Part shown: positions 14,174 to 64,000 of the stretch, one piece after another
Layout: each line of letters starts with the position of its first letter
Numbering within the stretch: position 1 is the first letter of the stretch
Source: Candidatus Omnitrophota bacterium
GTDB taxonomy: Bacteria > Omnitrophota > Gorgyraeia > Zapsychrales > Fredricksoniimonadaceae
Direction: 5' to 3'
Assembly: GCA_903944345.1 (NCBI GenBank)
Contig: CAJARJ010000009.1
Span: 65,875 to 129,874, forward strand
DNA length: 64,000 nucleotides
Made by a program: the position numbers and the translations under genes
Notes under the pieces: generated by a model
Told to the model about the DNA's origin: nothing
What the model saw: the letters and a program-made list of their open reading frames with translations, nothing else
Database searches by the model: none

Positions 14174-14208
14174 TGCCTCTCCTTCCGACAAAGACCAATC
14201 ACGCCCGG

Positions 14209-15666: not shown

Positions 15667-18347
15667 TAATCTGCCCCATATTTCAGTTCATATAAATTCG
15701 TTCCCGGAAGAATTCTTTCCTTTTTAGAACCGGGAAAATGAATGTCAATCGCTGGCTCTTTCCCTTGCAGCCATTGCCCTTTCCACTCAACAAGGCTATT
15801 TCGCTTGAGGGGGCTGATTGTGATGTGGATATCACCAAAACTTGTAGGGGCCGGACCAAACGCAAGCGTCTGATTTTTATCCAGCCATATTCGGGGAACT
15901 CCTGAACACAAAATAAGCCCGTTGCCTTCTTCCCTAACAAAACAGTTGCGAATCATCAGGACCCATTCTGCTGCAGCCCAGACGTGCTGTCCGTCTCCCA
16001 TGCATCCGCCACCCGTGCGAGGATGAATGGATTCGGGCCACTGCCCTGTTGGAGACGCAAATTTTGCTACCGCGGCCATTAATGCAAAATATTCAGGATT
16101 CCCGGAACGCAAAAGCACCTGAGCCAAATGCAGAGACAGATAAGGATTGATCCCTGAATGAGTCATGTCATGAAAGAAGGCGCCAGAAACCAAACAGTTC
16201 TTCATTAAATAATCCGCTGTATTCGACATCCTGGGATCATTCGACTCTACAATACGAAGAGGATAGCTGGCCGCCAATGAACCTATCGCCCCGGAATCCA
16301 TGCGCCGATAAGGAGACGCGGGGATTGCTGGGCGATTCAAACGTTTCGCCACACTTTCCAGGCTTCGATCAATACTCTGCATTAAGGCCCGCGATTCGAT
16401 CTCGAAATAAGAAGCCTGATTATTATCGTTATATTTAGCAGACAAAAAAGCCGCACTTCTTAACCCTGCGACACACCAGTAGTCATCCCAATAATAAAAA
16501 TCATTTGGCCCCAGATGCTCGGCGCTAAATCCCGATGGCAACAAACCAGAATGCGGCGATAACAAATTATCGGGTAAACGCTTCTGACATATCCAGCGAC
16601 CGGCTTTATTGATCGATTCTTTCCACTCTTCGGGTGGAGCATTGCCTGTCATTTCACAATACTGCTGCATAATCCACAAGGCTTCTCCGTTAGAGTCCCA
16701 CTCCCCTTCCTGCGAAAGAAAATATCCCTGTAACGTCTGTCGGTCGCGGAAACAATCCAGAGCCCGGCGCACACGATCTTTCAGTCCGGCACACAACAAG
16801 GCCTTTAGAATAAAAGCCGCATCACGAAACCAGAACCTCCGGTAAATATACGGCCCCGGATAAACTTCCCTGGGAGAATGCAAGATCATGGTGCGAATTG
16901 CGGCTTCGTAAAGAAACTGGAAATGCTCATCGGGAACCTTAAGCAAACACTCACCCTGAAGACTGGCGGCCCAGGCTGTCCGGGCCATCTGTGCATCTTC
17001 CACACAGGCATTATTCCTGGTCCCTTTATTCTCTACTAACGGCACCGTAAGCGCTATCTTCCGTGCCTGCCCCGCTTTCAATTGATATATTACCGCCGCA
17101 GAAGCCATGCCAACTCGACAGCAAACAGCGTTCCTCTCCTCCTGAAACGCCAAACGAGCATAAACATCACCATGTTCATAACATGAAAATGCCCATTGAT
17201 CCGGAATTATGTCCCAATAGAGAGAGCTGTTCTGATTGACCTGCCAACCTATCCGGCCTTTCAATATGGCAATATCGTAAACAAGGCTCAATCCTTCCGG
17301 ATTGTAGGGCCGTAAAGCAATCACAAGTTTAGCGTCCTCATCTGTCCGGCCTTCAACCAGGATATGACAAACAGGTGACTGCGTCCCGCCTAAAACCTGA
17401 ACTTGGGTTATAAGCACCAGGCTCTCAAATCTGGATTCCGTAACAACGCAAAGACCTTTGTCCATGATCAATTTTTGTGAACACCCTGACAACCGGGAAG
17501 GAATCAAGGGCTCCCCCTTCCCGGGAATGATCCAGAAGTCCAGTGACCAACTGTCAAAATAGGGCGTTACCAGTCCGCGTGGATCAACCAGTGGATATTC
17601 GGTGCTGTCAGGAATGCCCAGAGCCGTCCAATTGCGATGGGTAAGATTAATCTGCGTTAACGAAAAGGACCGAGGTATAAACGCTTCGTTGAGCGGGTCA
17701 TATTGACATTCCACCCAGTATGGCCAGACCCAATCCAGATTATGCTGAATGGCCAGACTGTTCATCAGTCCGCGCGCGTGCAGAACAACTCCGGAGCGCA
17801 CCAACTCCAGCGGAGCCGGAACCTCGGAAGGCTGCATAAAATTCTGCAACTGAAACAGTATCTTGAACGGATCAGGAAAGCCTTGTCGGCGTGCCGCGTC
17901 TCTTACAAAGAATTTCCAAGGTATCCATTTCCACCACGTAAAAGAAGTACTCTGACCTATCATCGGGAGAAAAACCCACCATTTATAACCAATATAAACA
18001 AACACTCCTGTTGCTACCGAGGCTGCGATCAAGGCCGGAAGAATCGCTTCGGGCCATACGGCAAGAATGCCGTGATTTGTCAGAAGATTAAGACCTAAAG
18101 CCAGAAAGTTAACAAATATATAACGGCCAGCTTCACCGGACGCTTTCGAGCAATGGCATTGAAATATCCAATGCTTGTTAAACAGATACGCAACAAGCCC
18201 TGCGCATATGAAAGAAATTCCTTTCGCCAGACTGAAAGGAAGGAATTGAAATAAAAGATAATAAAGGCCGGCGTCTGTGGCCCCTACAAAAAAACCGACA
18301 AGACCAAACCGGAATATTTCTGTATGCATATTCATAAAGTACCGCAA
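15666..18347 (-). CDS. GtrA-like membrane domain fused to a large six-hairpin glycosidase-like (GDE_C/GH63/GH15-like) domain
   Basis: The N-terminal ~130 aa are GtrA-family (FGLVGFFVGATDAGLYYLL, with four TM segments). The ~750-aa C-terminal domain has a block typical of (alpha/alpha)6 glycosidases (SPTGQWPESIHPRTGGGCMGDGQHVWAAAEW). Confidence 0.5.
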   Translation of the reverse strand: MRYFMNMHTEIFRFGLVGFFVGATDAGLYYLLFQFLPFSLAKGISFICAGLVAYLFNKHWIFQCHCSKASGEAGRYIFVNFLALGLNLLTNHGILAVWPEAILPALIAASVATGVFVYIGYKWWVFLPMIGQSTSFTWWKWIPWKFFVRDAARRQGFPDPFKILFQLQNFMQPSEVPAPLELVRSGVVLHARGLMNSLAIQHNLDWVWPYWVECQYDPLNEAFIPRSFSLTQINLTHRNWTALGIPDSTEYPLVDPRGLVTPYFDSWSLDFWIIPGKGEPLIPSRLSGCSQKLIMDKGLCVVTESRFESLVLITQVQVLGGTQSPVCHILVEGRTDEDAKLVIALRPYNPEGLSLVYDIAILKGRIGWQVNQNSSLYWDIIPDQWAFSCYEHGDVYARLAFQEERNAVCCRVGMASAAVIYQLKAGQARKIALTVPLVENKGTRNNACVEDAQMARTAWAASLQGECLLKVPDEHFQFLYEAAIRTMILHSPREVYPGPYIYRRFWFRDAAFILKALLCAGLKDRVRRALDCFRDRQTLQGYFLSQEGEWDSNGEALWIMQQYCEMTGNAPPEEWKESINKAGRWICQKRLPDNLLSPHSGLLPSGFSAEHLGPNDFYYWDDYWCVAGLRSAAFLSAKYNDNNQASYFEIESRALMQSIDRSLESVAKRLNRPAIPASPYRRMDSGAIGSLAASYPLRIVESNDPRMSNTADYLMKNCLVSGAFFHDMTHSGINPYLSLHLAQVLLRSGNPEYFALMAAVAKFASPTGQWPESIHPRTGGGCMGDGQHVWAAAEWVLMIRNCFVREEGNGLILCSGVPRIWLDKNQTLAFGPAPTSFGDIHITISPLKRNSLVEWKGQWLQGKEPAIDIHFPGSKKERILPGTNLYELKYGAD

Positions 18348-29254: not shown

Positions 29255-29317
29255 ACTTTCTAATCTTTATTGTCGCATCCAGCGGGGCTCAATTAAAATC
29301 CCTGCTACAAAAAAAAA

Positions 29318-29405
29318 CGGAGAAGCAGGGATTCGAACCCTGGAGTCGCTATTAACGACCACACGCTTTCCAGGCGTGCGCCTTCAACCACTCGGCCACC
29401 TCTCC
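29318..29405 (-). tRNA. tRNA-Ser (anticodon GGA)
   Basis: The minus-strand sequence GGAGAGGTGGCCGAGTGGTTGAAGGC...CUGGAAA...GGGTTCGAATCCCTGCTTCTCCG folds as a class II tRNA with a long variable arm. It has G73 and no encoded CCA. Confidence 0.85.
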
Positions 29406-29442
29406 AAAAGCTGCGAAATATTATCATCCGTCAGAAAGAAAG

Positions 29443-39350: not shown

Positions 39351-39439
39351 GGAGAGGTGCCTGAGTGGTTGAAAGGGACGGTCTCGAAAACCGTTGTATC
39401 GGGTAACTGATACCCAGGGTTCGAATCCCTGCCTCTCCG
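39351..39439 (+). tRNA. tRNA-Ser (anticodon CGA)
   Basis: GGAGAGGTGCCTGAGTGGTTGAAAGG...ACGGT-CTCGAAA-ACCGT...GGGTTCGAATCCCTGCCTCTCCG; class II tRNA, G73. Confidence 0.85.
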
Positions 39440-39592: not shown

Positions 39593-39677
39593 GGAGAGGT
39601 GGCTGAGCGGCCGAAAGCGGCGGTCTTGAAAACCGTTGACTCGTAAGGGTCCGTGAGTTCGAATCTCACCCTCTCCG
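39593..39677 (+). tRNA. tRNA-Ser (anticodon TGA)
   Basis: GGAGAGGTGGCTGAGCGGCCGAAAGC...CGGT-CTTGAAA-ACCG...GAGTTCGAATCTCACCCTCTCCG, followed by CTCTTTTTT. Confidence 0.85.
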
Positions 39678-39869
39678 CTCTTTTTTCATCTGCGCATCCC
39701 GGACTACTTCATTTTTATCATCCGTTACGTTATTGACGGGCTGGTCAAACGGACAGACTGGAGCAAGTCTGCGGTGGAAGACAGCCATCTCTGCTGTATT
39801 CGCTCCAACTAGAAACCTAATAACACCAGATCTCCGTCCAGCTGCCAAAAGTGACGTTCCGGTTTTTCT

Positions 39870-40481: not shown

Positions 40482-41753
40482 TCAGACAGTTATCTTCTTT
40501 AATCCATTAGTGTACGGCCAAAGCACCTCGGGAACCATGATAGAACCATCCGCCTGCTGATAATTCTCTATGATAGCAATCATTGTTCTGGGAGTGGCCA
40601 CTCCGGAACCATTGAGAGTATGCACAAAAACCGGCTTCTTCATCCCTGCGCCCTTATAGCGGATATTGGCCCGGCGCGCCTGGAAATCTTCGAAATTAGA
40701 ACAGCTGGAAGCCTCCAGCCATTTATCCAGCCCAGGGGCGTAAACCTCGAGATCATAACACTTTGCTGCCGCAAAACTCATATCTCCGGCAGCCAGTTCG
40801 ATCACGCGGTAAGGTAATTTCAAGAGCTGAAACACTCTTTCAGCATTACTGACGAGCATCTCAAGCTCGTCATACGACGCCTCAGGCTTGACGAACTTGA
40901 CCAGCTCGACTTTATTAAACTGGTGAACACGCATCAGTCCGCGGGTATCCTTGCCGTAAGACCCCGCCTCCCTGCGAAAACACGACGAATAGGCGGTATG
41001 ATAAAGCGGCAATCTGGATTCATCCAGAATTTCGTCACGATACATGTTGGTAACCGGGACTTCCGCCGTAGGAATAAGATAAAGCGCATCTTCCGGAAGA
41101 AAATACATATCATCCTTCATTTTGGGCAGCTGCCCTGTCCCCTGCATACTGGCAGCATTAACCAAAACCGGAGGGAAGACCTCTTCGTAACCATGGTGAC
41201 GGGTATGCAGATCCAGCATAAAATTTATCAACGCCCGCTCAAGCAAGGCTCCGGCTTTCTTGTAAAGCAGAAAATTGGCACCGGAAAGTTTAGTCGCCCG
41301 CTTGAAATCAATAATATCCAGACGTTCCGCCAAAGCCACGTGATCCTGGGGCTTGAAGTCAAAAGAAAAAAGTTCCCCGCAACGGCGAACCTCCCTGTTG
41401 TTCTCCGGCCCCCCCCAGGGAACCTGGGGATACGGCACATTAGGAACATACAGTAACTTCTGCGTGATTTCATCCTCGATCAAGGCAAGCCGCGGATCGA
41501 TAGCGTCAATCTCGACTGCCACCGATTTCATGGCGGCGATAGCCTGCGCCGGATCTTTCTTCTCTCGAATCATCAACGAAATCTCGTCATTGGCTGCATT
41601 CTTGCGAGCCTTGAGCTGGTCAGCCCTGACAATCAGCGCCCGGCGTTCCTCGTCAAGAGCGAGAATAGCATCAAGATCCGCTCGCGAATTCTTCGCGGCC
41701 AATCCCTGCCTGACCCGCTCCACATTCTCCCGAATAAATTTCAAATCCAGCAT
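40482..41753 (-). CDS. serS: Seryl-tRNA synthetase
   Basis: MLDLKFIRENVERV N-terminal coiled coil and class II aaRS motifs; 423 aa. Confidence 0.9.
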   Translation of the reverse strand: MLDLKFIRENVERVRQGLAAKNSRADLDAILALDEERRALIVRADQLKARKNAANDEISLMIREKKDPAQAIAAMKSVAVEIDAIDPRLALIEDEITQKLLYVPNVPYPQVPWGGPENNREVRRCGELFSFDFKPQDHVALAERLDIIDFKRATKLSGANFLLYKKAGALLERALINFMLDLHTRHHGYEEVFPPVLVNAASMQGTGQLPKMKDDMYFLPEDALYLIPTAEVPVTNMYRDEILDESRLPLYHTAYSSCFRREAGSYGKDTRGLMRVHQFNKVELVKFVKPEASYDELEMLVSNAERVFQLLKLPYRVIELAAGDMSFAAAKCYDLEVYAPGLDKWLEASSCSNFEDFQARRANIRYKGAGMKKPVFVHTLNGSGVATPRTMIAIIENYQQADGSIMVPEVLWPYTNGLKKITV

Positions 41754-49881: not shown

Positions 49882-52383
49882 ATGAAAAAAAACATAATCC
49901 CGCATTTGCTTCCCTGGCTGCTCACCGGATGCCTGGTCTTTATAGCAGGAATTTCTGTCCGCTTGTATCCACTAACCCATAATGTCACTTCTGATGCCTA
50001 TGAAGAAGGGACCCTTCTGGTCATCAACGGCATCCGCTCGATGCTGTCCGCACAGATCAGCGCCCAATTTCCACAAATGTCGTCAACTGAAAAAGAAGCA
50101 CTGGTTTCCAGCCGGCTCAACGAAACACTCCGCCAGGAGAACACCCGGGTTCGGAAAGCTTTCGAAGATGCCAGTCTGGAACTGCTCAAACAAAAGCCGG
50201 ACTCTGAGCACTACTTACTGGCTTCAGACGGATACTATTTTCTTAATCTGACCGAGAACATTCTGGCCAAAGGTGACGTAAGCGACCTAATCAAAGGAAG
50301 CCGTTACTTTAACACCCTTATGATGGCCCCGCTTGGCTACTGGGAGCCCCATTCATGGCATCCTTATGTCGGAGCATGGATCACCCGAGCTATCCGGCTC
50401 TTTGCCCCGGAAACTTCGACCATGTCCGCCGTTGCCTGGACTCCTATTGTTCTTCTGCCTTTTGCCATCGCCGCCTTTCTTTTTGCCTGCCGCGCCTCCG
50501 GCTGCTCCGTTGTCCCTTCTTTTACTGCTGCGGTCTTTTTTATTATGGCTTCTATTTACGTCAAGCGCAGCACCTACGCCTGGTACGACAATGACTCCTA
50601 TGCGGTTATCTTCCCGGCACTAGTTCTCGGCTGTCTCTTTATGGCATTACGCAGCCTCGGTCATACCAAAAAATTTATCCTCTACAGCGCTCTGGGGGCA
50701 GCATCCCTGGCCCTTTATTCGATGTTCTGGTCCGGATGGGTTTATCTCTGGGCCCTGACGCTGATAGCCATGACTGGAATAGGAATAAAATATCTTCTGT
50801 TGTCAGATCCCCGGATTAATCGGATAGCCCTGAGCGCAGCAACCCTGCTGGTTCTGACATTGCTCCTGGTCGCACTTTTGATCGGTCTGCCGCAAATCGG
50901 TGGAGTCATTCAAGCGGCATGGGGCGAATTGCAAAAATTTACAAATCCGGCTTTCAAAAGCTGGCCAGATCTTTTTGTTGTAGTCGGCGAACTAAAAAAA
51001 GGGTCCTGGAGCGATATTGCAGAACTCGGCGGAGGGCCTATTCCTCTTTTGGGTGCAGCGGTCAGTTTATTCTTCACACTTTATCTATTCCTGCGTAAAC
51101 GCATCCCTCCTTCGGATGAAATTATTATTCTGACTGCTTTTTCTTTGGTAACCTGCATGCTTGGCCTGTCTGCCCAGCGTTTTATTATCCTCTGCCTGGT
51201 TCCTGTATCTCTTCTTTTTGCTCTCGCCCTTGAGCAATCCTACGGCGCCAGAAAGAAACTTATCCGCCTTCTGCGAATCAATAAATCCTCTCTACGCTGG
51301 CTTGAAAAAGGCCTTCTTGCTTTGATGATTCTTTCTGTTTTTGTGCCGATTATCCATGGACAGCGTGCCATTCGCTCCCTGCTTAACCCCATTTTTAATT
51401 CAGCCTGGGACCGGGCGTTGACCAAACTCGCGCAAGAAACTCCTCCCGAAAGCATCATCAATACCTGGTGGACTCCCGGGCATTTCGTCAAAGCTATTGC
51501 CAAAAGATCTGTTACTTTTGATGGCGCCAGTATTAAAGGAGAACAGGCTTACTGGCTGACCAGAATCTATCTTGCCAATGATGAACGCGCTGCACTCGGT
51601 ATCCTGCGAATGCTTAACACCAGTTCAAACCAGGCAGCGGAATACCTGCAAAGCCTTGGTCTGCCTTTATCCATGGCCGTTCCTCTGCTTCTTGAAATCA
51701 CCAAGATGCCCGAAACAACGGCCAGACAAGCCCTGCGTAAAGTTTTCCCTGAAAACGCTACCAAAGAAATCCTGCGATTAACACATACCCCGCCCCCCCC
51801 CTCTTATATGCTGATTTATAACGAAATCGCGGAAAACAACCCGATGCTCGGGTACGTCGGCAAATGGGACTTCAGCCGTATCGAAAAACTTAACCAGACG
51901 CCTGCTGCGCTTAAGAAAATCCCTGCCCGGGGATCCTCTGGCTATACCGATTTTCTCTGGGGTCTTGTCGGAGGCCCTTTTCGTCAAAGCCCGATAATGA
52001 CTATGAATGGCCGCAATGGCACAAAAGAAATCTTTGCTGACACCCTGATCATCGATACTGACACAATGACCGCTGAGGTCCGTTCCAAAACTTATGGACA
52101 AGGCATCCCTTACAGTATTGTCTATCTTGATCCACACAAAAAAATTGTCACTGAGAAACCTCTCCCGGGAGCCAGTCTTACCTATTCCGTCGTTTATTTC
52201 ACCGATCGCCAGTCAAAAAAAGCCATCCTGATGGATCGGCTTCTGGCAAATTCACTCATTGTAAAAATGTATTATTTTGAAGGGAAAGGCCTTGAATATT
52301 TCGAGCCTTTTGCACAGGAACAGGATTTAACCGGACGCACCAGGATTTTCATTTACAAAATAAACTGGCCGAAGGATTTCTGA
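49882..52383 (+). CDS. STT3/AglB/PglB-family oligosaccharyltransferase-like membrane protein (GT-C) with a variant WWTPG motif
   Basis: 833 aa with about 13 N-terminal TM segments and a ~300-aa C-terminal soluble domain. The first-loop motif SDGYYF is comparable to the PglB NDGYAF motif. NTWWTPGH occupies the WWDYG position and is followed by TFDGAS, like PglB VDGGKH. Confidence 0.5.
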   Translation: MKKNIIPHLLPWLLTGCLVFIAGISVRLYPLTHNVTSDAYEEGTLLVINGIRSMLSAQISAQFPQMSSTEKEALVSSRLNETLRQENTRVRKAFEDASLELLKQKPDSEHYLLASDGYYFLNLTENILAKGDVSDLIKGSRYFNTLMMAPLGYWEPHSWHPYVGAWITRAIRLFAPETSTMSAVAWTPIVLLPFAIAAFLFACRASGCSVVPSFTAAVFFIMASIYVKRSTYAWYDNDSYAVIFPALVLGCLFMALRSLGHTKKFILYSALGAASLALYSMFWSGWVYLWALTLIAMTGIGIKYLLLSDPRINRIALSAATLLVLTLLLVALLIGLPQIGGVIQAAWGELQKFTNPAFKSWPDLFVVVGELKKGSWSDIAELGGGPIPLLGAAVSLFFTLYLFLRKRIPPSDEIIILTAFSLVTCMLGLSAQRFIILCLVPVSLLFALALEQSYGARKKLIRLLRINKSSLRWLEKGLLALMILSVFVPIIHGQRAIRSLLNPIFNSAWDRALTKLAQETPPESIINTWWTPGHFVKAIAKRSVTFDGASIKGEQAYWLTRIYLANDERAALGILRMLNTSSNQAAEYLQSLGLPLSMAVPLLLEITKMPETTARQALRKVFPENATKEILRLTHTPPPPSYMLIYNEIAENNPMLGYVGKWDFSRIEKLNQTPAALKKIPARGSSGYTDFLWGLVGGPFRQSPIMTMNGRNGTKEIFADTLIIDTDTMTAEVRSKTYGQGIPYSIVYLDPHKKIVTEKPLPGASLTYSVVYFTDRQSKKAILMDRLLANSLIVKMYYFEGKGLEYFEPFAQEQDLTGRTRIFIYKINWPKDF

Positions 52384-52482: not shown

Positions 52483-52559
52483 GGGTCGGTAGCTCAGTTT
52501 GGGAGAGCGCCTCGTTCGCAATGAGGAGGTCGTGGGTTCGACTCCCATCCGATCCACCA
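52483..52559 (+). tRNA. tRNA-Ala (anticodon CGC)
   Basis: GGGTCGGTAGCTCAGTTTGGGAGAGCGCCTCG-TTCGCAA-TGAGGAGGTCGTGGGTTCGACTCCCATCCGATCCACCA. It has the G3:U70 Ala identity pair and an encoded CCA. Confidence 0.85.
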
Positions 52560-52626: not shown

Positions 52627-54291
52627 TCACGGAAATTCATATAAATATAAACCGACACCTTTGTCTTCTTTCTGAACTACCTTTTTGGCAGAAAGATCAA
52701 ATGAACGCTTAACTATATCAATCAACGCCTGCTCCAATGGATCATGTGTTGCCACATAGAGCCAAACGCGCCCCCAACGCTCTTTACTAATCACCGGCAC
52801 ATCCTGACAGGCGAAAAGTAACTGATCTCCTCCGCTTAACAGGCGTCGGAAATGTCCTCCGGCGTCATAAACGTTATACTCATAACGCATCGGAACACAT
52901 TCCCTGCCATTACTTTTGATCGAATCCAAAGCAAATTTTACCACGCGAACACCTCGCTGCAATTCCCCCTCAAACAACCCCAACGGTTGCGCTAAGAAAC
53001 GACCGTAGCCGTAAATAGGAGCGTAATGCCAAAAAGGCTCTTGTCCGGCAGTATTAAACACCAGCAAGTCCCCTTGCCGATAATTTTCATGAAACAGCCT
53101 CAAAGCCTCTCGTGTCTCAATTTTTGCGTGTGAATGGAAAAGATAGAACCCCGCTTCCAGAAAAGAAGGAACCACCAGAACCGCAACCAAGCCCACGGTC
53201 AATACAATCCTTCTCGCAGCAGAGAATTTGCTGATTAAAGCACCGACCGCCTCTGCAATCAGAAGGATGACTCCCGGCATAAGAAACAGGATCAGCCTGC
53301 CACGGAAAGGATACTTTTCCAGCGCTGCCGCAAGCAGCGCAGCCAGAACCGGAAACAAAAACATCCAGAATCGCGCACGATCGCGCTTCCATAACAGAAC
53401 CGCCCCGCTCAAACAAAGAAATCCCGCCAAAGGTGTCACATAAATCCCGGCAGCACCTCTGAACATTTCAAGAAAAGCCTTCAACGCCCACCATATCAAA
53501 GCCGGAAGATTGGTCCAACTACCTGTATAGACCGAACCGGAAAAAGTTGACAAAATAGCGGTACTCCCTACCATTGAGGCCAGACTAAGTCTATAGATAA
53601 CAAGCAAAACCAATAGCCAAACCGCCGCAATCAGAAACAAAAGCGGCGCTGCCGCATATCTTTTACGCGCCCACATATCATCCAGCAAAATGACTCCGAA
53701 CGCTGCCAGAACAAAAAGCAGGGCATTGGACATCCAGAGCCCTGCCACACCGAAGGCAAGCAGCCATAAAAGAGCTCTGGTTTTGTACTCACAGCGACGA
53801 ATCCATTCAAAAACCCACAAAGCCAGAACCGCCATTAAAAGATCACTGGAATACTGTTTCACCTCACCTGCGTAATAGACCATCGGTTCAGCAAAAGCAA
53901 ACAGCGCCAGAGCCCAAGGCAAAACATCTCGTGAGGCGTAACGACAAAGGTAACGATAAAAAAGTATTAAAGCAAGAATCGCCGAAAAAAACGGAAAAAA
54001 GCGCAAAACCATATCTGTCGGGCCAAAAAGAGAGACCAATATCCGTTCAATCACAAGAAAAAATAGCGGCTGTTTGGGAAATTCGGGGAAGATTTCGAAA
54101 TAAGAAAAAATTTCTCCCAATGACCGGCTTGTGATACTGACCGTCAAACAAGCCTCATCCAGCCATACCGAACGGTTCTCCAGATAATGCTTTAGACGAA
54201 ATATAATTCCCAGCGACAAAATTATCCATGACAAGCGGCCCGCAAGAACATTATAAAAAGCTCTTGTTTTATCCCGAAAGAATGACATCAT
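52627..54291 (-). CDS. GT-C fold glycosyltransferase (GT39/GT83, ArnT/PMT-like)
   Basis: 554 aa and polytopic. The first periplasmic loop carries the DE motif (RSVWLDEACL). A C-terminal soluble domain is present. Confidence 0.6.
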   Translation of the reverse strand: MMSFFRDKTRAFYNVLAGRLSWIILSLGIIFRLKHYLENRSVWLDEACLTVSITSRSLGEIFSYFEIFPEFPKQPLFFLVIERILVSLFGPTDMVLRFFPFFSAILALILFYRYLCRYASRDVLPWALALFAFAEPMVYYAGEVKQYSSDLLMAVLALWVFEWIRRCEYKTRALLWLLAFGVAGLWMSNALLFVLAAFGVILLDDMWARKRYAAAPLLFLIAAVWLLVLLVIYRLSLASMVGSTAILSTFSGSVYTGSWTNLPALIWWALKAFLEMFRGAAGIYVTPLAGFLCLSGAVLLWKRDRARFWMFLFPVLAALLAAALEKYPFRGRLILFLMPGVILLIAEAVGALISKFSAARRIVLTVGLVAVLVVPSFLEAGFYLFHSHAKIETREALRLFHENYRQGDLLVFNTAGQEPFWHYAPIYGYGRFLAQPLGLFEGELQRGVRVVKFALDSIKSNGRECVPMRYEYNVYDAGGHFRRLLSGGDQLLFACQDVPVISKERWGRVWLYVATHDPLEQALIDIVKRSFDLSAKKVVQKEDKGVGLYLYEFP

Positions 54292-54306: not shown

Positions 54307-55128
54307 TTATAAAGCACCCCGTAACCGCACCTGGATGCCCTCTGATTTGCTGTCGGCATCGACCCGGCTCTGTCCAAAAGCATTGATCTGATCAGCAAAA
54401 AAAGAACGTTCTTGTTCGGTCCCGGTCACTAAAGGCCGACCTTTCTCTGAGACAATCTTAACCCGTTGCTTTAAAAGGTCTTCAAGCCTCACGGCCAGGT
54501 CTTCTCTCTTTCTAGAGCGAAGCGCAGTGATGGCATCCATAACCTTGAATCGCTGATTGAGGATCATATAACACAGTCCGGCTCCGTAATGAAGCATGGC
54601 ATTATCGTCGCGATTCAGATTCTTCTCAAAAAACGGCAAAGCTTCATCCGCATTGGACTGTCCTAAAAGATAAACCCAGGCCAAAGAAACCTCAATGTCC
54701 GGCTGGGAGGTCTTCAGAGCAAGTGAACGGCTTAACGCTTGAGCGGCTTGAGAAAAATCACCAGAAGAATAACAGGCCCGACCCAGATTATTCAAAGCAT
54801 CCACACTTTGAGGATCAATATCAGCAGCCAGTCTGAAATATCGGATAGATTCCCGAGTATCCGCCATTGGCCCGGATTCAAAAACAACGCCAAGGCCGTT
54901 ATAGGCTGCGGAAAACCTGGGGTCGAGTTCTATCGCTTTCTTGAAAAATTCAATAGCCTGCTCATAGGCGCCATCACGAGTAGCCATTACTCCCATTTGA
55001 TAAAAATTTTCTTTAGTCAACGACGCGGCTGCGCACAAAGAAGAAAATGAAGAATGGACGACCAGAATTGCCAGGAATATAAAAGTAGACAAACAAAACT
55101 TTTTACTAGACACAGGATTACTGAACAT
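54307..55128 (-). CDS. Secreted TPR-repeat protein
   Basis: Signal peptide; I trimmed the start to MFSNPVSSKKFCLSTFIFLAIL. At least four TPR units (AYNGLGVV, ALNNLGRACY and others). Confidence 0.65.
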   Translation of the reverse strand: MFSNPVSSKKFCLSTFIFLAILVVHSSFSSLCAAASLTKENFYQMGVMATRDGAYEQAIEFFKKAIELDPRFSAAYNGLGVVFESGPMADTRESIRYFRLAADIDPQSVDALNNLGRACYSSGDFSQAAQALSRSLALKTSQPDIEVSLAWVYLLGQSNADEALPFFEKNLNRDDNAMLHYGAGLCYMILNQRFKVMDAITALRSRKREDLAVRLEDLLKQRVKIVSEKGRPLVTGTEQERSFFADQINAFGQSRVDADSKSEGIQVRLRGAL

Positions 55129-55792
55129 TCGAAGCTTTAGACTGATCAGACGAAAGACTGTCCTTGATTCTGACCAATGTCTTGGCACTTACAGAAGGAT
55201 CTGCCCCGATCACAAGCCTTGAGATGGTCAATGTAGCCTGAACAACATCCTCGGCTTTTCCAGAGGAAACAGTCATCTTTTCAACCTTAAAAAGATTTTT
55301 CGATGATTGTAAAGCATAAATAAAACTGGTCAAATCTGTCAAGGACGCTGAACAATCCAGCGAAACCAGATACTTTAAAAAATCATCCGTATACTCCTGA
55401 CCTGCCGGGGTCAGCTTGGACATCTGCACATTGGCTTTAGTGGCCATTAATTCGACTTGCTTCAAAAAATCGGCTATGACCTCTTCTTCAGCCTTGACCT
55501 CTTGAGTGAAATAATCTCCAAAAACAGAAGCATCCTTCATAATTCGTTCGCGATAGGCCAAAAAGTGCTGATTCTGCCGAACCACATTTTGCTCTTTTTC
55601 AATGGCTTCATTAAGCTGCCGCAACCGTCCCGTAGCAGGCGAAATCAAGAGCCGATCAAAAAGTGCCGCTGTCACCGCCAATGCGGCCAATAAAAAAACT
55701 TTTTTCTCCGTTGCTGAAAGACCGGAAATAAACTTGTGAATCAAGGGTTGCTCCTTATTTATCCTGGGCGATAGAAGAATCCTGGCGCTCAA
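55118..55792 (-). CDS. gspM: GspM/PilO-like T2SS inner-membrane component
   Basis: N-terminal TM, coiled coil and periplasmic domain. Placed by position downstream of gspL. Confidence 0.5.
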   Translation of the reverse strand: MSARILLSPRINKEQPLIHKFISGLSATEKKVFLLAALAVTAALFDRLLISPATGRLRQLNEAIEKEQNVVRQNQHFLAYRERIMKDASVFGDYFTQEVKAEEEVIADFLKQVELMATKANVQMSKLTPAGQEYTDDFLKYLVSLDCSASLTDLTSFIYALQSSKNLFKVEKMTVSSGKAEDVVQATLTISRLVIGADPSVSAKTLVRIKDSLSSDQSKASNVQ

Positions 55793-57224
55793 CCGGTTGC
55801 CCGAAAGAAGATATCCCGAGAACTATCTCGAAAACAGCGACATCTTTGCTGCGTTCTTTCCTGGTTGCCGTAGACTTGGTCTTGACACTCTCAAAAAGAT
55901 CTGACTCTTCCAGACTGGTTACAAAAGAAAACACCTGGGACATTGAATCAGAAACTCCCTGCAAACTCATTGTTCCGGAAAGGTCCATACTGACATTCGA
56001 AAGATACATCTCATCTGGAACCAGTCGATAAAGCTCCCGTATGACCTCCAAAGGAATTTCACGGGCAAACATATGTTGACGCAAAATGCGCGTCTTGGCT
56101 GCCATATTTTCAAGGTTGCGGACTTCCAGCTTTTGCTCAGCGAATTTCTCGATCAAATTCTGTTTCAAAAACATGTCTCTAAAATAGACCCGGCTGGACA
56201 TTCCTCCACTGATAAAAAAAAGAAAAAGAATAACCAAAACTCCAGCTTTGAAAGTTTCCTGTCCGCGCTGGAAAACAGCTCTCTGATCTTTTATTTCCTG
56301 CGGAACAAGATCGACCTGACATTTTGAGGCATATATCGCAGGCGCGATAACGTCCAAAGCTGTGTCATCAGTAAAATCCTTGACCAAAGCATCTTTGACC
56401 TGAGCATCTGCCTGGAGCAAATTGATATAAGAAAGTCGCTCTACTTTAACGCCATATGCGGCAGTGATTGCATCAGCAATCTGGGCCAAAGAAGACTGAT
56501 TCGAAGTTAGTACAAAGCGTCCCGGCTTAAGCGGTGTCCCCTGCTGTTCATAAGCATCCAGGGAAAGTTTTAACTCGTTCATGAATTGCCCGACAGCCTC
56601 GACATCCACCGTCAGATGCTCCAGTCCAATAGGAATCGAGCGGGCAGAAAGCAACGAAGACTGATTCTCCAGCATAAAAGTCGCGCTGGTTTTTGCAAAA
56701 TCTATAATCACAACCGGAGAATCATTCTTTTTGTGCTTGAAAATAGCCGCATAAAAATGCGCAATACCTTCCGGAACAAACTGAACCGAAGTTGTCTCCA
56801 GTTTGGCACGCCGCATCAAAGCAATTTTGTCTTTAACCACATCCCGCTTGACCACAACCAGAAGCACCCGGGTGGAATTAGGCTTTGGATGCCCCAACTG
56901 AATATACCCTGTCAGAATCTCATCTTTACTAAAAGGAGTTTGCCGGGCGGCCTGCAAAGCAAGAATCGAATCCAATTCATCTTTGTCGACAGAAGGAACC
57001 TCAATACTCTTGAGAGTCACAACGTCTGCGGGAATCAGGCAGATAACACCAGCGCCTTTGGTGTTGAACCCGGACAATACGCCAAGAAGCGCTGCGTCTG
57101 CTCCGGCATTATTGATAGGACGTTTGACCAGTTTTTCAATATATCCAGAACTCCTGATCTGGGCGATCTTGAGTGTGTCGGAAGAAATTGAAATACTGAT
57201 ATATCTGGAGTATCTTAAAGACAT
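55755..57224 (-). CDS. gspL: GspL-like (PilM-like cytoplasmic actin-fold + TM + periplasmic domain)
   Basis: 489 aa, matching the domain organisation of GspL. It directly follows gspK. Confidence 0.6.
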   Translation of the reverse strand: MSLRYSRYISISISSDTLKIAQIRSSGYIEKLVKRPINNAGADAALLGVLSGFNTKGAGVICLIPADVVTLKSIEVPSVDKDELDSILALQAARQTPFSKDEILTGYIQLGHPKPNSTRVLLVVVKRDVVKDKIALMRRAKLETTSVQFVPEGIAHFYAAIFKHKKNDSPVVIIDFAKTSATFMLENQSSLLSARSIPIGLEHLTVDVEAVGQFMNELKLSLDAYEQQGTPLKPGRFVLTSNQSSLAQIADAITAAYGVKVERLSYINLLQADAQVKDALVKDFTDDTALDVIAPAIYASKCQVDLVPQEIKDQRAVFQRGQETFKAGVLVILFLFFISGGMSSRVYFRDMFLKQNLIEKFAEQKLEVRNLENMAAKTRILRQHMFAREIPLEVIRELYRLVPDEMYLSNVSMDLSGTMSLQGVSDSMSQVFSFVTSLEESDLFESVKTKSTATRKERSKDVAVFEIVLGISSFGQPVERQDSSIAQDK

Positions 57225-57288
57225 GTCACCTCACCTGTTTGATTTTTATTATATCGCAATGCTTTTTAAAGGTTCAATGGAAATCGTA

Positions 57289-58305
57289 TTATTTTTGCAC
57301 CCAAAGTTCAACCTTCCCGGTTAAAACATCGAGCACTCCAAAAATCTCCGCATTCTCAGCGTCAGGTGTCCGGCTGCGGAAAGAATATACTGTCGACTCA
57401 ACGCCGATTATCCCCCTGGAATTAAGTGCGTCTATCTGCCGGGCGGAGTCTTCCTCAAGGCCAACGAGCTTGCCCACATCCGCAGCCACATCGAACGAAC
57501 GCAGAAAAATATGGTCATCAGCAGTTGCTTCAAGACCGTCTTTGCCCCGTCTTGCCTGCAAAATCCTGTCTGTCACCATGGCCTCCAGTCCCAAAGCCAA
57601 CAGCACTGTGCGGGAAGCTGTATTAATATTAACCCTGCCATTGCCATAAATTGTAAGATATGCAGCCAGCTTTCTGAACTTCTCTGCATTCATGCCTTTA
57701 ACCAGCAACAACTCATCCAGTCGCTCGAAAGGAGATTCCTTCATCGGATAAGGGGAATCCAGATTCTGGTAATAGCTATCACTAAAAAATCCCTGCGCCG
57801 AACGCATCCCGTAATCGCGCCAGTCGAGAATATCATCCGCGAGCGTCTGCGCCTCATCCGTCATCAGACCCAAAACAAGTGAAAGAAGCCTGGACAGAAC
57901 CGTCCGGTCGGACGTGTTTAAGTTGATCTTGGCCTGCTCATCGGCAAGACCAAAAAGAAAGCCGCTTCCCGCCACCGGATCCAGCTGATAGTCAACCTGA
58001 ACTTTTAAACCGGCAACCATAATTTCAGAAAAATCAGACGAATTATTATGCCTGCGTAATTTCGCGGATAATGACGGAAAAACTCCTGAAGTTTCCACAT
58101 CGTCTGTCAGCACCGCAATAGCTTTTTTTGCTCCGGCCTGCACTGCGGCGCGAACCTGAGAACGTGACTCAAGCCTTTTGAGCATGACAATTCTTTGCCG
58201 GGCGCCCAACCCGATCGAAACGGCCAGAATTGTCAGAAAAGATAACGACCACAAGGACAATAACAATACAGCAGCATCTTTACGAAACAAGAAAACTTTC
58301 CCCAA
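57289..58305 (-). CDS. gspK: GspK minor pseudopilin
   Basis: GspK hallmark GRVNINTAS and a hydrophobic N-terminal segment (AAVLLLSLWSLSFLTILAV). The track ORF (to 58566) overlaps gspJ by 260 nt, so I trimmed to TTG at 58305, 1 nt after the gspJ stop. Confidence 0.6.
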   Translation of the reverse strand: MGKVFLFRKDAAVLLLSLWSLSFLTILAVSIGLGARQRIVMLKRLESRSQVRAAVQAGAKKAIAVLTDDVETSGVFPSLSAKLRRHNNSSDFSEIMVAGLKVQVDYQLDPVAGSGFLFGLADEQAKINLNTSDRTVLSRLLSLVLGLMTDEAQTLADDILDWRDYGMRSAQGFFSDSYYQNLDSPYPMKESPFERLDELLLVKGMNAEKFRKLAAYLTIYGNGRVNINTASRTVLLALGLEAMVTDRILQARRGKDGLEATADDHIFLRSFDVAADVGKLVGLEEDSARQIDALNSRGIIGVESTVYSFRSRTPDAENAEIFGVLDVLTGKVELWVQK

Positions 58306-58306
58306 C

Positions 58307-58891
58307 TTACACCCCCGCCGGCAAAACAAAATATCTTGCAATTTTTCTGTTTTGCTTTTGTTCCACCCATTCGACCTCAACCATAATGCCAGCCGGAAGA
58401 ATCTGCCCTTCCTTAAATGGCAGAGCCTCGGATGAACCCGGATAATAATACAAGAAACGCAGACTACTGACGCCAGGTGCAACCTGGACAGGTGTCTGCC
58501 AATTGCCATGAACCGCCCGACCATAATCAGCCTGCTGCCGCACAATCTGGCCAGAAACTTCATCATAAAAGTACCTGACCACCCCTATCTGCTCACCGGC
58601 CACTTCATCGACCCGGGAACTTTTTGCATCAGTCTTTGCGTAAATAATAGTTGGAAAAGTAAGTGCAGAGATTTCGCCTTCAACCGAAAGCGTAGAAAAA
58701 AGAAAAGCGTTGGCTGTCTCGACTGCCAACCGGTCAAAAAAGACCGTCACGGCTTCCGCCGTCCTCACAGCCTGCATCTTCTTCCATAATTTTAACCCAT
58801 TTGACAAACAAAGAAAAACAGCAAGACTGATGGAAGCTACCAGCGCCGTAACCAGCAACATTTCCAGAAGAGAAAAGCCCTGTCTTTTCAC
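58307..58891 (-). CDS. gspJ: GspJ-like minor pseudopilin
   Basis: Prepilin-type N-terminus MKRQGFSLLEMLLVTAL. Confidence 0.6.
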   Translation of the reverse strand: MKRQGFSLLEMLLVTALVASISLAVFLCLSNGLKLWKKMQAVRTAEAVTVFFDRLAVETANAFLFSTLSVEGEISALTFPTIIYAKTDAKSSRVDEVAGEQIGVVRYFYDEVSGQIVRQQADYGRAVHGNWQTPVQVAPGVSSLRFLYYYPGSSEALPFKEGQILPAGIMVEVEWVEQKQNRKIARYFVLPAGV

Positions 58892-59313
58892 TGAGCTCCC
58901 GTGTTATTGAATGAAGAAAGTCCAGAAAAGTATGCACTCCGGGAAAGAGTAAACATTCTTTCCCTCTCCTGCCAGGATACGCTCAGATCAAGTTGAAAAA
59001 CTGACAACAATGTCCCCACAGGTTTGAGGACTGCAGACAGCTGAAAACTGACGGGTCGGACACCATATCCTTCCTCGCCCCCTGACGAAGAAACATCCGC
59101 GGCATGCAAAGAGCGCAGCTCCTTTTCGATAAAGGCGGATCTGGACTCCAAAAGATTCAGCGCATAAAGACGATTTGCCAAATGCTCATTCAAATCCGCA
59201 CCGAGCAAAAACGAACGATAGATGGCTACCAGACCGGCGGAAAGAATAATGATCGCGACCATAACCTCGATAAAAGTCAGGCCGGAACAATTACTTCCAG
59301 TTCGTAATATCAT
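58888..59313 (-). CDS. GspI/GspH-like minor pseudopilin
   Basis: Prepilin motif SG/LTFIEVMVAIIIL with E at +5. I trimmed the start to MILRTGSNCSG to limit overlap with gspG. Confidence 0.5.
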   Translation of the reverse strand: MILRTGSNCSGLTFIEVMVAIIILSAGLVAIYRSFLLGADLNEHLANRLYALNLLESRSAFIEKELRSLHAADVSSSGGEEGYGVRPVSFQLSAVLKPVGTLLSVFQLDLSVSWQERERMFTLSRSAYFSGLSSFNNTGAQ

Positions 59314-59710
59314 CCGCCTCGGCATCAGCATCCTTTCCCTTGGAGAAAAGATCATAGTCAGTTCTGTGCGCCCCGGGAGCCTGATAAACATAGGCATTGT
59401 TCCAGGGATCAAGCGGATCTTTTTCTAAATAGGGACCCTGCCAGTTTCTGGGAACAGGGGCCAGCGATGATTTCTCCCGCAATGCTCTAAGTCCCTGGGA
59501 AGTTGTCGGGAAAGATCCATTGTCAAGTTCATAAAGCTTGAGCGCCGTGGCAATATTAGTCTGGATATCGGCTTTAGCCACAGCAATCAGGGCTTGCTCC
59601 GACCGACCGGACAGACGCGGCATGATCATGGCCGCCAAAGCCCCGATTATAACTACAACCAGCATAATCTCCACCAAAGTAAAACCCTGGTCATTATTCT
59701 TCATACCCAA
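59291..59710 (-). CDS. gspG: GspG major pseudopilin
   Basis: MGMKNNDQGFTLVEIMLVVVIIGALAAMIMP ... NWQGPYL...DPWNNAY; a classic GspG. Confidence 0.85.
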   Translation of the reverse strand: MGMKNNDQGFTLVEIMLVVVIIGALAAMIMPRLSGRSEQALIAVAKADIQTNIATALKLYELDNGSFPTTSQGLRALREKSSLAPVPRNWQGPYLEKDPLDPWNNAYVYQAPGAHRTDYDLFSKGKDADAEADDITNWK

Positions 59711-59717
59711 CCTCCGG

Positions 59718-60575
59718 TTAAATGTTGTCCAATGACAAAAACGCTTTCCATCTTTTCTCCAGATCGTTCACCGATGGAAAGACCAAAGGATACGCAGTCT
59801 GGAGCGCCTGCTCAAAATCCTTGCCATCGCGCAATTCTCGCAGCAAGCGGCGAAAAGCGTCCCGTCCGTGCTTCTCCAGCATAAAAAGAACCAATGAAAG
59901 ACTCTGCGCATAAAATAATGATACTTTTGCGGTGTCCTTCTCATTAACAATATCCATTCCCGCAAGGATCGCTAACGGAATAATCTGCCCTGACGCTTCA
60001 ACCTGCTTTATTGCCTGCTGAACAATTTCTCGCTTATCGCTTTCCGCTAACTGGGCAATTCCCTCCTCAAGCCATAAAGGAACTTTGCTTGAAAACCCGA
60101 GAAAATCCCAAAGAACCAGATGGGCGATTTCATGCGGCAATGCTTCTTCCAGAAAACCGAGCTGCCCCAGCCAGGAAACGATCACCCGGCTTGAAAAAAA
60201 TTTTGAATACCGACTGGCATACGCTTTGGACCACTGCGGTTGTCCGGTAAAACGATTATAGCTGAACTGGTCTGGATATAAAACAATCCTAACCCTGCGA
60301 TCCCATGCCCAGGACTGCTGATGTCGGCTGTGACCAATATCAGAGGTAATCTTGCTGTAATACAATTCCGCCCGATCCAGAATTTGCCGGGCACTAGCCC
60401 GCTCCTGCTCGGCAGTAAACTCAACAAGAAAGTGCTCGCCCCTGACCTCCTGAAACGGCTGATTATCCCCGGCGCACGCTATCGAAAATAGCTGCGATAA
60501 AAAAAAGCACGACAGTAAAATAAAAACATGGAATCCTGACAAAATTCGGGGCAATAACGAAACTGTTCCGGTCAT
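59718..60575 (-). CDS. Secreted zinc metallopeptidase-like protein (HExxH...E gluzincin motif) embedded in the T2SS operon
   Basis: Signal peptide. HEIAHLV is followed 20 aa later by LEEGIAQ. The gene overlaps the gspF stop by 4 nt. Confidence 0.55.
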   Translation of the reverse strand: MTGTVSLLPRILSGFHVFILLSCFFLSQLFSIACAGDNQPFQEVRGEHFLVEFTAEQERASARQILDRAELYYSKITSDIGHSRHQQSWAWDRRVRIVLYPDQFSYNRFTGQPQWSKAYASRYSKFFSSRVIVSWLGQLGFLEEALPHEIAHLVLWDFLGFSSKVPLWLEEGIAQLAESDKREIVQQAIKQVEASGQIIPLAILAGMDIVNEKDTAKVSLFYAQSLSLVLFMLEKHGRDAFRRLLRELRDGKDFEQALQTAYPLVFPSVNDLEKRWKAFLSLDNI

Positions 60576-61777
60576 TGAAAGGCGTCCATCTGAAAGATTG
60601 GCATTAACATGGCGAAAACCAGAAACCCCACCACCAGTCCAACGCCAAGAATTAAAACCGGCTCCAGCAAAGTCATAAGAACTTTTGTCGATTCGGAAAT
60701 TTCTTCTTCATAGGTATCCGCGATGTCTTCCAAAGCCCGTGCCAGCTCACCGGACTCTTCCCCGACTGCAATCAACTGAACAAAGGAGTCCGGAATATTC
60801 TCGGCAGCAGACAACGCTTGCGCAAATCCGGCGCCTCCCGCAATTTGTTGCTGACAAAGCGTCAAAGCATCGGCCAGACGTTCATTAACAACTGTTGGCC
60901 CTGCAATCTCCAAAGAACGTAAAACAGGTATTCCACTGCGCAAAAGCAGACTGGTCGTCCGGGAAAAACGTTCGAGATCAATCTTGAGAAAAAAAGTCGC
61001 AAAAAAAGGGATCCCTGACATCATCCGGAAACAAACACCTCGCAAAGAGACCACGAACGCCGGTGAACGCAACAGCACAAGAAAAAGCAAAATTGCCGGA
61101 ATGGCAAAAGGCCACAACTTGCAGGCCAAATCACTTAAACGCATCACAATCAAAGTCGGCAGTGGCAAATTGCTGCCCAAATCACGAAAAAGCACCAGAA
61201 TCCGGGGAAGAACAAAAGTGAGAATAAAAACAACTGTCACAAAACCAAGTGCCAGCATAAAAGCCGGATAAACCAAAGCAGTTCTAACCTTGGAGGCTAT
61301 CTCCTCCTGTTTTCGGTAATAAACCACAACATTGGCCAGCATTTCTTTTAACTGTCCGCTTTCCTCTCCGGCTCTGGCCATGGCAATATACAAACGGGGA
61401 AAGAAATCCGCATGTTCTGCCAGGCATGCAGAAAAAGACCGGCCATTACGGATATTCGACGCAATATCTTTCAACACCCCAACAAGTCGTATATCTTTGG
61501 TCCGCCGCAAAATCATTTCAAGCGCCTTCAACAAAGGAACTCCCGATTTCAGCAGACTAACCAGTTGTTTGGAGAACGACAGCAGACTACGGCTACCAGA
61601 AGCTGACACTTGCAGAGGAACATGAACGCTAATCCCCCCATTTTTCTCTTCAACAACAACCGGCAACAAACTCATACGGCTAACCAGATCAATAGCCTCG
61701 CGCTGATCCGTCGCCAGAATTTCTCCCAAAACGGTTTCCCCGCTATCTTTCTTTGCTTTATAGGAAAAAAGCGGCAT
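60572..61777 (-). CDS. gspF: GspF inner-membrane platform protein
   Basis: 401 aa with two GspF repeats and three TM segments. Confidence 0.85.
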   Translation of the reverse strand: MPLFSYKAKKDSGETVLGEILATDQREAIDLVSRMSLLPVVVEEKNGGISVHVPLQVSASGSRSLLSFSKQLVSLLKSGVPLLKALEMILRRTKDIRLVGVLKDIASNIRNGRSFSACLAEHADFFPRLYIAMARAGEESGQLKEMLANVVVYYRKQEEIASKVRTALVYPAFMLALGFVTVVFILTFVLPRILVLFRDLGSNLPLPTLIVMRLSDLACKLWPFAIPAILLFLVLLRSPAFVVSLRGVCFRMMSGIPFFATFFLKIDLERFSRTTSLLLRSGIPVLRSLEIAGPTVVNERLADALTLCQQQIAGGAGFAQALSAAENIPDSFVQLIAVGEESGELARALEDIADTYEEEISESTKVLMTLLEPVLILGVGLVVGFLVFAMLMPIFQMDAFQ

Positions 61778-61780
61778 TGC

Positions 61781-64000
<2,220 letters not shown>

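Follow-up and report, generated by a model that had tools for sequence, protein, structure and literature searches.

The stretch of 64,000 nucleotides analysed here (the window), from contig CAJARJ010000009.1 of a Candidatus Omnitrophota bacterium, carries a gene for an STT3-like (GT66-type) glycosyltransferase whose relatives form a discrete clade, with named members almost all from Candidatus Omnitrophota. The clade departs from WWDXG, a motif of the oligosaccharyltransferases (OSTs), at precisely two positions, the Asp and the variable residue, and has also replaced the Lys of a second motif, DGGK. Its catalytic, amide-activating and phosphate-binding residues are under near-absolute constraint, and the clade as a whole is under strong purifying selection. 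We read the window protein, with a probability of roughly 0.6, as an active periplasmic GT66-type transferase in which the catalytic residues are intact and the recognition of the acceptor has been remodelled.

The gene lies exactly at the coordinates given in an earlier note made from the letters of this DNA, and the three motifs named there (SDGYYF, WWTPG and TFDGAS, the last at aa 545-550) are all present. The gene, its motifs and its predicted domains are as follows.

49882..52383, plus strand: STT3-like (GT66-type) glycosyltransferase gene, 833 codons encoding 833 amino acids (aa), with ATG at 49882 and TGA at 52381-52383.
49882..51381, plus strand: N-terminal membrane domain, aa 1-500, with about 13 transmembrane helices (AlphaFold2 helix list and hydropathy peaks).
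50224..50241, plus strand: SDGYYF, aa 115-120, in external loop 1 (EL1), the first DXD-type motif, with D116 the predicted catalytic Asp.
50581..50601, plus strand: WYDNDSY, the second DXD motif, with D236 and D238 (conservation and alignment).
50962..50994, plus strand: WPDLFVVVGEL, the external loop 5 (EL5) motif, in which VVGE, with E370, is the equivalent of TIXE/SVSE (conservation and alignment).
51175..51183, plus strand: QRF, in which R433 presumably binds the (pyro)phosphate (conservation and alignment).
51382..52380, plus strand: C-terminal periplasmic globular domain of the OST type, aa 501-833 (about 330 residues).
51466..51480, plus strand: WWTPG, aa 529-533, within TWWTPGHF (aa 528-535), in place of the WWDXG Ser/Thr-pocket motif.
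51505..51531, plus strand: RSVTFDGAS, aa 542-550.
51520..51531, plus strand: DGAS, in place of the DGGK or DNXT motif (family counts and alignment).

The Pfam family STT3 (PF02516) matched aa 108-460 with 61 bits against a gathering cut-off of 24.5 (E=2e-16), and the same domain is carried by all 26 of 26 close homologues. The model of the STT3/PglB core domain (PF21436) matched aa 523-580 below threshold (17 vs 23 bits), and the sole NCBIfam match, weak and partial, was to an archaeal STT3 subfamily. A chance open reading frame is excluded by the PF02516 score and by more than 150 full-length relatives that score at least 550 bits with the family profile. The STT3/PglB-like identity suggested in the earlier note is upheld by the Pfam profile search, by profile matches to PDB sequences and by Foldseek; neither the hidden Markov model search nor the structure search placed the protein in a non-STT3 family such as a DUF2723-type one, an outcome that the note had allowed for. 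A PMT/ArnT-type (GT39/GT83, PMT, PMT_2) or DUF2723-type assignment was rejected, as Pfam and NCBIfam give STT3 only and the protein carries an OST-type periplasmic domain; the structures of Pmt4 and ArnT align over about 370-425 residues, in the membrane domain only. An identical protein is already held in public collections, where one source automatically names it dolichyl-diphosphooligosaccharide--protein glycosyltransferase. A promoter and terminator scan yielded nothing reliable above chance level.

An AlphaFold2 model built from 21 homologues (mean predicted local distance difference test score, pLDDT, 83.3; predicted template-modelling score, pTM, 0.75) shows a GT-C membrane domain, with about 13 predicted transmembrane helices, and, outside the membrane, an OST-type C-terminal domain. 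The top Foldseek matches in the PDB were structures of Campylobacter lari PglB (5OGL, 6GXC, 3RCE; E 1.3e-18, template-modelling scores 0.56/0.65), followed by eukaryotic STT3 (1e-13) and Archaeoglobus fulgidus AglB (1e-12), with DPY19, ArnT and PMT much weaker. Family profiles searched against PDB sequences matched OSTs exclusively: STT3A at 5e-19, A. fulgidus AglB (AfAglB) at 2.7e-14 and C. lari PglB at 1.8e-5. By the helix list of the model, a helical periplasmic insertion of about 90 residues separates the first transmembrane helix from the catalytic Asp; the spacing from R27 to D116 has a family median of 91 residues, whereas AfAglB and STT3A have their catalytic Asp at D47 and D49. Family profile alignment gave the following equivalences.

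D116: D49 of STT3A and D47 of AfAglB.
D236 and D238: D167 and E169 of STT3A, D161 and H163 of AfAglB.
E370 (in VVGE): E360 of AfAglB, the TIXE position; not aligned in STT3A.
R433: R405 of STT3A and R426 of AfAglB.
WW-x-P-G: WWDYG in both STT3A and AfAglB.
R542...D547-G548: R...VD of STT3A (VDNNT); not aligned in AfAglB.

The same equivalences for the WW and EL5 motifs were returned by hhalign against a canonical protein with WWDYG and a DK motif (P0176; probability 98%), with the E370 motif falling on its SVAE, and phmmer set WWTPG in the WWDYG column of the C-terminal domains of Pyrococcus furiosus AglB and Campylobacter jejuni PglB. The replacement of WWDYG by WWTPG, as the earlier note had it, is thus seen in the same column of four independent sequence or profile alignments (phmmer, STT3A, AfAglB and hhalign); the equivalence rests on these and on the whole-domain fold matches. 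The candidate DK/MI segment at aa 647-653 (NEIAENN) has the pattern [E/D]-x-x-[E/D], with no clear DK or MI, and lies beyond the end of the profile alignments at about aa 583.

Solved OSTs have in common two DXD motifs, TIXE or SVSE, WWDYG, DGGK or DNXTZNX[T/S], and DK/MI; WWDYG and DK/MI form the pocket for the Ser/Thr of the acceptor, and DGGK is presumed to bind the lipid-linked glycan (LLO) (PMC8342417). WWDYG is therefore not the catalytic-site motif that it had been called, being the Ser/Thr(+2) pocket and not the catalytic site itself (PMC8342417). The accompanying statement that its Asp and Tyr contact the +2 residue is right in that the motif is this pocket, but the Tyr occupies the variable X position of WWDXG, and the papers cited here do not describe it as a contact of the sequon. 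WWDXG has been called essential (PMC12229607). In C. jejuni PglB, activity is lost in the mutants D459V, Y460N/C and G461D and in the double mutant D459N-S492C, and is lowered by K478A, within DGGK (PMC3527161). PglBs of Desulfovibrio have the variants WWDWG, DGGR and NL, keep WWD and follow a relaxed acceptor rule (PMC12229607).

The extent of the clade was seen in a profile scan (HMMER) of 1.84 billion representatives at 50% identity, which returned 3,243 proteins at E<=1e-3, of which 1,164 reached E<=1e-30. All of the top 150 matches are full-length, with scores of 550 bits or more; canonical WWDYG proteins reach no more than 98 bits with the same profile, so that a wide gap separates the two groups. 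Searching again for homologues with alignment A2 brought in little apart from three outliers.

In an alignment of 160 full-length clade members, D116, E370 and R433 are present in all 160, D236 in 158 and D238 in 159. The EL5 region has P362 in 160/160 and W361 in 158/160, and its motif across the clade is [T/S/V/A]VGE. At the WW motif, W530 and G533 are invariant (160/160) and W529 and P532 nearly so (157/160 each), while position 531 is Pro in 100 members, Ser in 39, Ala in 7, Thr in 6, Cys in 6 and Gly in 1; Asp is found in 0/160. The Thr-Pro pair described earlier for the window protein accordingly holds for the clade in its Pro, which is near-invariant, but not in its Thr, which is unconserved (WW[P>S>A,T,C]PG): with residue 531 variable and the Pro constant, it is the loss of Asp and the gain of Pro that define the clade. 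Ser, Thr or Ala stands at 531 in the sub-clade of the window protein (at least 45% identity), and deeper branches mostly have Pro. Further along, R542 is invariant (160/160) and D547 and G548 are each present in 159/160. The equivalent of DGGK is DGAT, DGAS, DGGS or DGGT, that is DG[AG][ST], without a double sequon; its fourth residue is Ser or Thr in 144 of the 155 four-residue variants listed, and Lys in none. E648, E651 and D663 are well conserved acidic positions in the same alignment. A distant relative without Pfam assignment (P0175, 859 aa) has SWEWGS at the position of the WW motif, followed by NYYANR..IDD, and represents a second, distinct departure from WWDXG.

This pattern bears on the idea that the protein is a dead pseudo-enzyme, or a misassigned GT-C enzyme or transporter (for example of the DUF2723 or PMT/ArnT type). 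The WWD Asp, regarded as essential, is indeed absent, and PF21436 stays below its cut-off (17 vs 23 bits); both the conservation of the clade and its OST-type C-terminal domain tell strongly against the idea, which is largely refuted and which we hold to be very improbable.

The named homologues of the protein are metagenome-assembled genomes (MAGs) of Candidatus Omnitrophica/Omnitrophota. When one genome per GTDB species was scanned, 192 relatives came up; the best 80 of these (34-56% identity) are mostly labelled Candidatus Omnitrophota or Omnitrophica, and among the same 80 are 26 labelled "uncultured Planctomycetales bacterium", a generic label from third-party MAG assemblies, and a handful with other labels. 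Literature searches returned no paper with WWPPG, WWSPG or WWxPG, and for WWTPG only an unrelated abbreviation; no paper pairing STT3 with Omnitrophica was found, and the returns of searches on Omnitrophota glycosylation, pili and the phylum at large were irrelevant. The clade, its motif and STT3-type enzymes in Omnitrophota thus appear to be undescribed in the literature, although automatic annotation to the STT3 family already exists. In a broad evolutionary survey, the STT3 homologues of bacteria are described as few in number and acquired by transfer from archaea (PMC4973528).

Our interpretation, an active enzyme with remodelled acceptor recognition, follows from three things taken together: the catalytic residues are conserved, the pocket motif is changed, and substitutions at the Asp and Tyr positions inactivate PglB. 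The protein would be an inner-membrane enzyme with its active site facing the periplasm, taking a polyprenyl-(pyro)phosphate-linked glycan as donor and transferring it to an acceptor. The most probable acceptor would be the side chain of an Asn in proteins that are secreted or periplasmic, since the EL5 Glu, which is specific to OSTs, is invariant; this Glu and the retained Trp pair, we infer, favour Asn in a peptide. The +2 hydroxyl would not be read through the canonical Asp, and the acceptor rule should therefore differ from N-x-S/T or be relaxed. Recognition of the reducing-end sugar perhaps also differs from that of known OSTs.

It is also conceivable, if unlikely, that the enzyme is an ordinary N-x-S/T OST in which another residue of the pocket supplies the hydrogen-bond acceptor and the change of motif is neutral drift that was fixed early. 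In favour of this, the clade conserves both Trp, the Gly, the His/Tyr-Phe that comes next and the R..D-G segment, a Ser or Thr at 531 in the sub-clade of the window could still hydrogen-bond, and the conserved E648, E651 and D663 lie in the region expected for DK/MI; the Desulfovibrio PglBs, moreover, tolerate WWDWG, DGGR and NL (PMC12229607). Yet the Pro at 531 in 100/160 members allows no side-chain hydrogen bond, the invariant Pro532 implies an altered backbone, and DGGK has changed as well. The reported motif variants in the cited OST literature all keep the Asp, and in PglB neither the single mutant D459V nor the double mutant D459N-S492C is active (PMC3527161).

The surroundings of the gene offer some indication of possible clients. 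As the earlier note had described, the STT3-like gene is convergent with an operon resembling those of type II secretion systems (T2SS; by Pfam), the final gene of which encodes a GT-C enzyme. The junction contains the following features, including a tRNA gene that had escaped the note.

52483..52559, plus strand: tRNA-Ala(CGC), between the stop codons of the two convergent genes (ARAGORN).
52627..54291, minus strand: GT-C glycosyltransferase of 554 aa, GT39/ArnT-like, the last gene of the operon (Foldseek, homologues).
54307..63538, minus strand: T2SS-like pseudopilus operon (Pfam), from GspE at 61781..63538 through a tetratricopeptide repeat (TPR) protein at 54307..55188.

The genes of the operon run in the order GspE(MshEN), GspF, peptidase_MA, GspG, two N-methyl pseudopilins, GspK, a PilM/PilN fusion, GspM, TPR protein and GT-C protein. 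Its peculiarities are the peptidase_MA between GspF and GspG, the PilM/PilN fusion in place of GspL, and the terminal TPR gene; no secretin or prepilin peptidase gene lies near it in the window, and the next gene upstream of GspE (63516..63998) encodes a V/A-type ATPase subunit. The 554-aa protein matches Pfam PMT_2 weakly (17.8 bits), and its homologues are named GT39, many of them with PF13231; its AlphaFold2 model (pLDDT 90.6) has Foldseek matches that are all GT-C proteins (PglB, ALG12, STT3, ALG9, ArnT, Pmt4 and AftA).

Proteins of the window were compared with 84 related loci by tblastn; downstream counts refer to the 65 loci with at least 3.5 kb of sequence downstream of the STT3-like gene, and upstream counts to the 75 with at least 0.9 kb upstream. 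In 53/65 loci the STT3-like gene and the T2SS-like operon are arranged tail-to-tail, the TPR gene usually being 0-400 bp from the stop codon of the STT3-like gene. A gene for a trypsin-like serine protease stands directly upstream, on the same strand, in 63/75; it encodes 221-259 aa with a signal peptide and a GDSGGP motif (for example L004 9212..9991, plus strand), and its adjacency is the tightest conserved partnership of the STT3-like gene. This protease gene is missing from the whole window and from its 91%-identical relatives (locus L001 has a GT2 gene in its place). Farther upstream the flank is variable, with, for example, a transketolase gene in about 17 loci at differing distances.

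At the junction itself, a GT-C gene, with or without genes for a GT2 and a UDP-GlcNAc 2-epimerase, is inserted in 9/65 loci, apparently all from the sub-clade of the window, which also carries the tRNA. The tRNA-Ala(CGC) gene follows the STT3-like gene in 11 loci, only within the sub-clade of at least 47% identity (L001 12614..12689, L004 12638..12713, L006, L007, L009, L011, L013 and L015-L018). Since the tRNA and the GT-C/GT2/epimerase cassette occur in the same sub-clade, the tRNA may mark an insertion hotspot. In locus L080, which has no T2SS operon, a 1,784-aa all-TPR protein (12534..17888, minus strand) lies tail-to-tail with the STT3-like gene and is followed by a 475-aa GT2. Because L080 keeps a TPR protein without a T2SS, the recurring partner may be the TPR protein and not the secretion system itself. 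The most distant member inspected (P0026, 28% identity) has an unrelated gene context.

More speculatively, this neighbourhood may point to clients in the envelope or among secreted proteins: the pseudopilins, the cargo of the T2SS, the periplasmic protease and the TPR protein. An analogy is provided by AglB, which glycosylates archaeal pilins and archaellins (PMC5131992, PMC11407970). Support for such clients is weak, as the operons are convergent, the loci probably belong to one phylum, and the neighbours are without an N-x-S/T signal.

Several observations weigh against an active OST-like enzyme with remodelled recognition. Given that Asp- and Tyr-position substitutions kill PglB, OST activity of the clade is not to be assumed. 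Pfam scans of the main open reading frames of the window found no pgl-like cluster for the assembly of lipid-linked glycans (initiating phosphoglycosyltransferase, flippase) beside the gene, and the glyco-genes present are scattered (a GT4-hydrolase fusion, a GtrA-fused protein and an epimerase). The T2SS-like operon, being convergent, is not co-transcribed with the STT3-like gene; the window has a tRNA gene between them, the adjacency is lacking in 12/65 loci, and part of the synteny could stem from common descent within a single phylum. Sequons were counted in 44-67 orthologues each of GspG, the two minor pseudopilins, GspK, GspM, the TPR protein and the protease. N-x-S/T is not enriched in these neighbours over composition (for example 0.51 observed vs 0.62 expected per 100 aa) and is not positionally conserved, the best columns having it in 25/49 or 27/57 sequences; this null result says nothing if the sequon of the clade is a different one. 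One of E648, E651 and D663 might replace the missing Asp and leave the sequon canonical. Finally, member P0007 (L004 10001..12523) has YKNS in place of YDND at the second DXD motif while keeping D116, E370, R433 and WWSPG, and may be an inactivated or mechanistically divergent copy; besides it, one further member of the 160 is without D236.

The absence of an N-x-S/T signal in the neighbouring gene products would also suit a GT66-derived transferase that modifies something other than Asn in a protein, such as Ser, Thr, Trp, Arg, a lipid or an envelope glycan, the OST scaffold having been re-used. Remodelling of both the acceptor and the glycan-contact motifs of the periplasmic domain speaks for this, as does the EL1 insertion of about 90 residues, which is missing from the solved OSTs aligned, and the related folds of DPY19, PMT and ArnT show the scaffold serving other acceptors. 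With the OST-specific EL5 Glu invariant, we consider a non-Asn acceptor quite unlikely. A bolder reading, that this GT66-derived enzyme no longer reads N-x-S/T, follows a new acceptor rule or serves a new acceptor class, and has envelope or secreted clients tied to the adjacent T2SS-like system, the TPR protein and the protease, we put forward only tentatively, as possible but on the whole doubtful.

Elsewhere in the window, an 893-aa protein (15666..18347, minus strand) has an N-terminal GtrA/DPMS transmembrane domain, its other ~770 residues matching no Pfam family or PDB sequence, and may be another polyprenyl-phosphate-sugar-dependent membrane glycosyltransferase. Directly downstream on the same minus strand (12095..15666) is an unusual pair, a GT4 fused to an alpha/beta-hydrolase domain (720 aa) and an adjoining acyltransferase with a phosphopantetheine-attachment domain (485 aa). 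There are also three tRNA-Ser genes (GGA, CGA and UGA), two of them in tandem beside the seryl-tRNA synthetase gene.

29317..29406, minus strand: tRNA-Ser gene.
39351..39439, plus strand: tRNA-Ser gene.
39593..39678, plus strand: tRNA-Ser gene.
40482..41753, minus strand: seryl-tRNA synthetase gene.

The interest of the clade lies in its being large and natural, with the catalytic machinery kept and the WWD Asp and the DGGK Lys replaced. If its members are active, they would amount to a natural experiment on the rewiring of sequon recognition, and bacterial glyco-engineering could possibly draw on them for OSTs whose acceptor rules are new or relaxed. They would then also be evidence for STT3-type glycosylation as a core trait of a whole, mostly uncultured bacterial phylum, where bacterial homologues have so far been regarded as few and horizontally acquired (PMC4973528). 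The conserved link with a pseudopilus operon is a concrete place to seek substrates. Were it true that N-x-S/T is no longer read and that clients belong to the neighbouring systems, the enzyme would be a bacterial counterpart of the N-glycosylation of archaeal pilins and archaellins, and its clade a third independent bacterial lineage of the STT3 type besides those of the Campylobacterota and Desulfobacterota.

Set beside the single-subunit PglB of C. lari and C. jejuni (5OGL, 3RCE, 3AAG), among the closest known systems, the window protein has an identity of only about 14%. WWDYG is WW[P/S/T]PG and DGGK is DG[AG][ST] in the Omnitrophota clade, and the MI motif is not identifiable; the window protein has, in addition, two helical insertions, the one of ~90 residues that precedes the catalytic Asp and another within the periplasmic domain (aa 553-634), and its gene stands without an adjoining pgl glycan-assembly cluster. 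Compared with A. fulgidus AglB-L (AfAglB-L; 3WAJ, 7E9S) and with STT3A and STT3B, the clade is bacterial, appears to be single-subunit, and has neither the Asp of WWDXG nor the DNXTZNX[T/S] double sequon nor a recognisable DK motif. It resembles the PglBs of Desulfovibrio (for example DmPglB) in being bacterial and in having C-terminal motifs that deviate from the Campylobacter type, and in Desulfovibrio such drift of the motifs accompanies a changed specificity; those enzymes, however, keep the WWD Asp and the basic residue of DGGR, whereas the Omnitrophota clade loses both.

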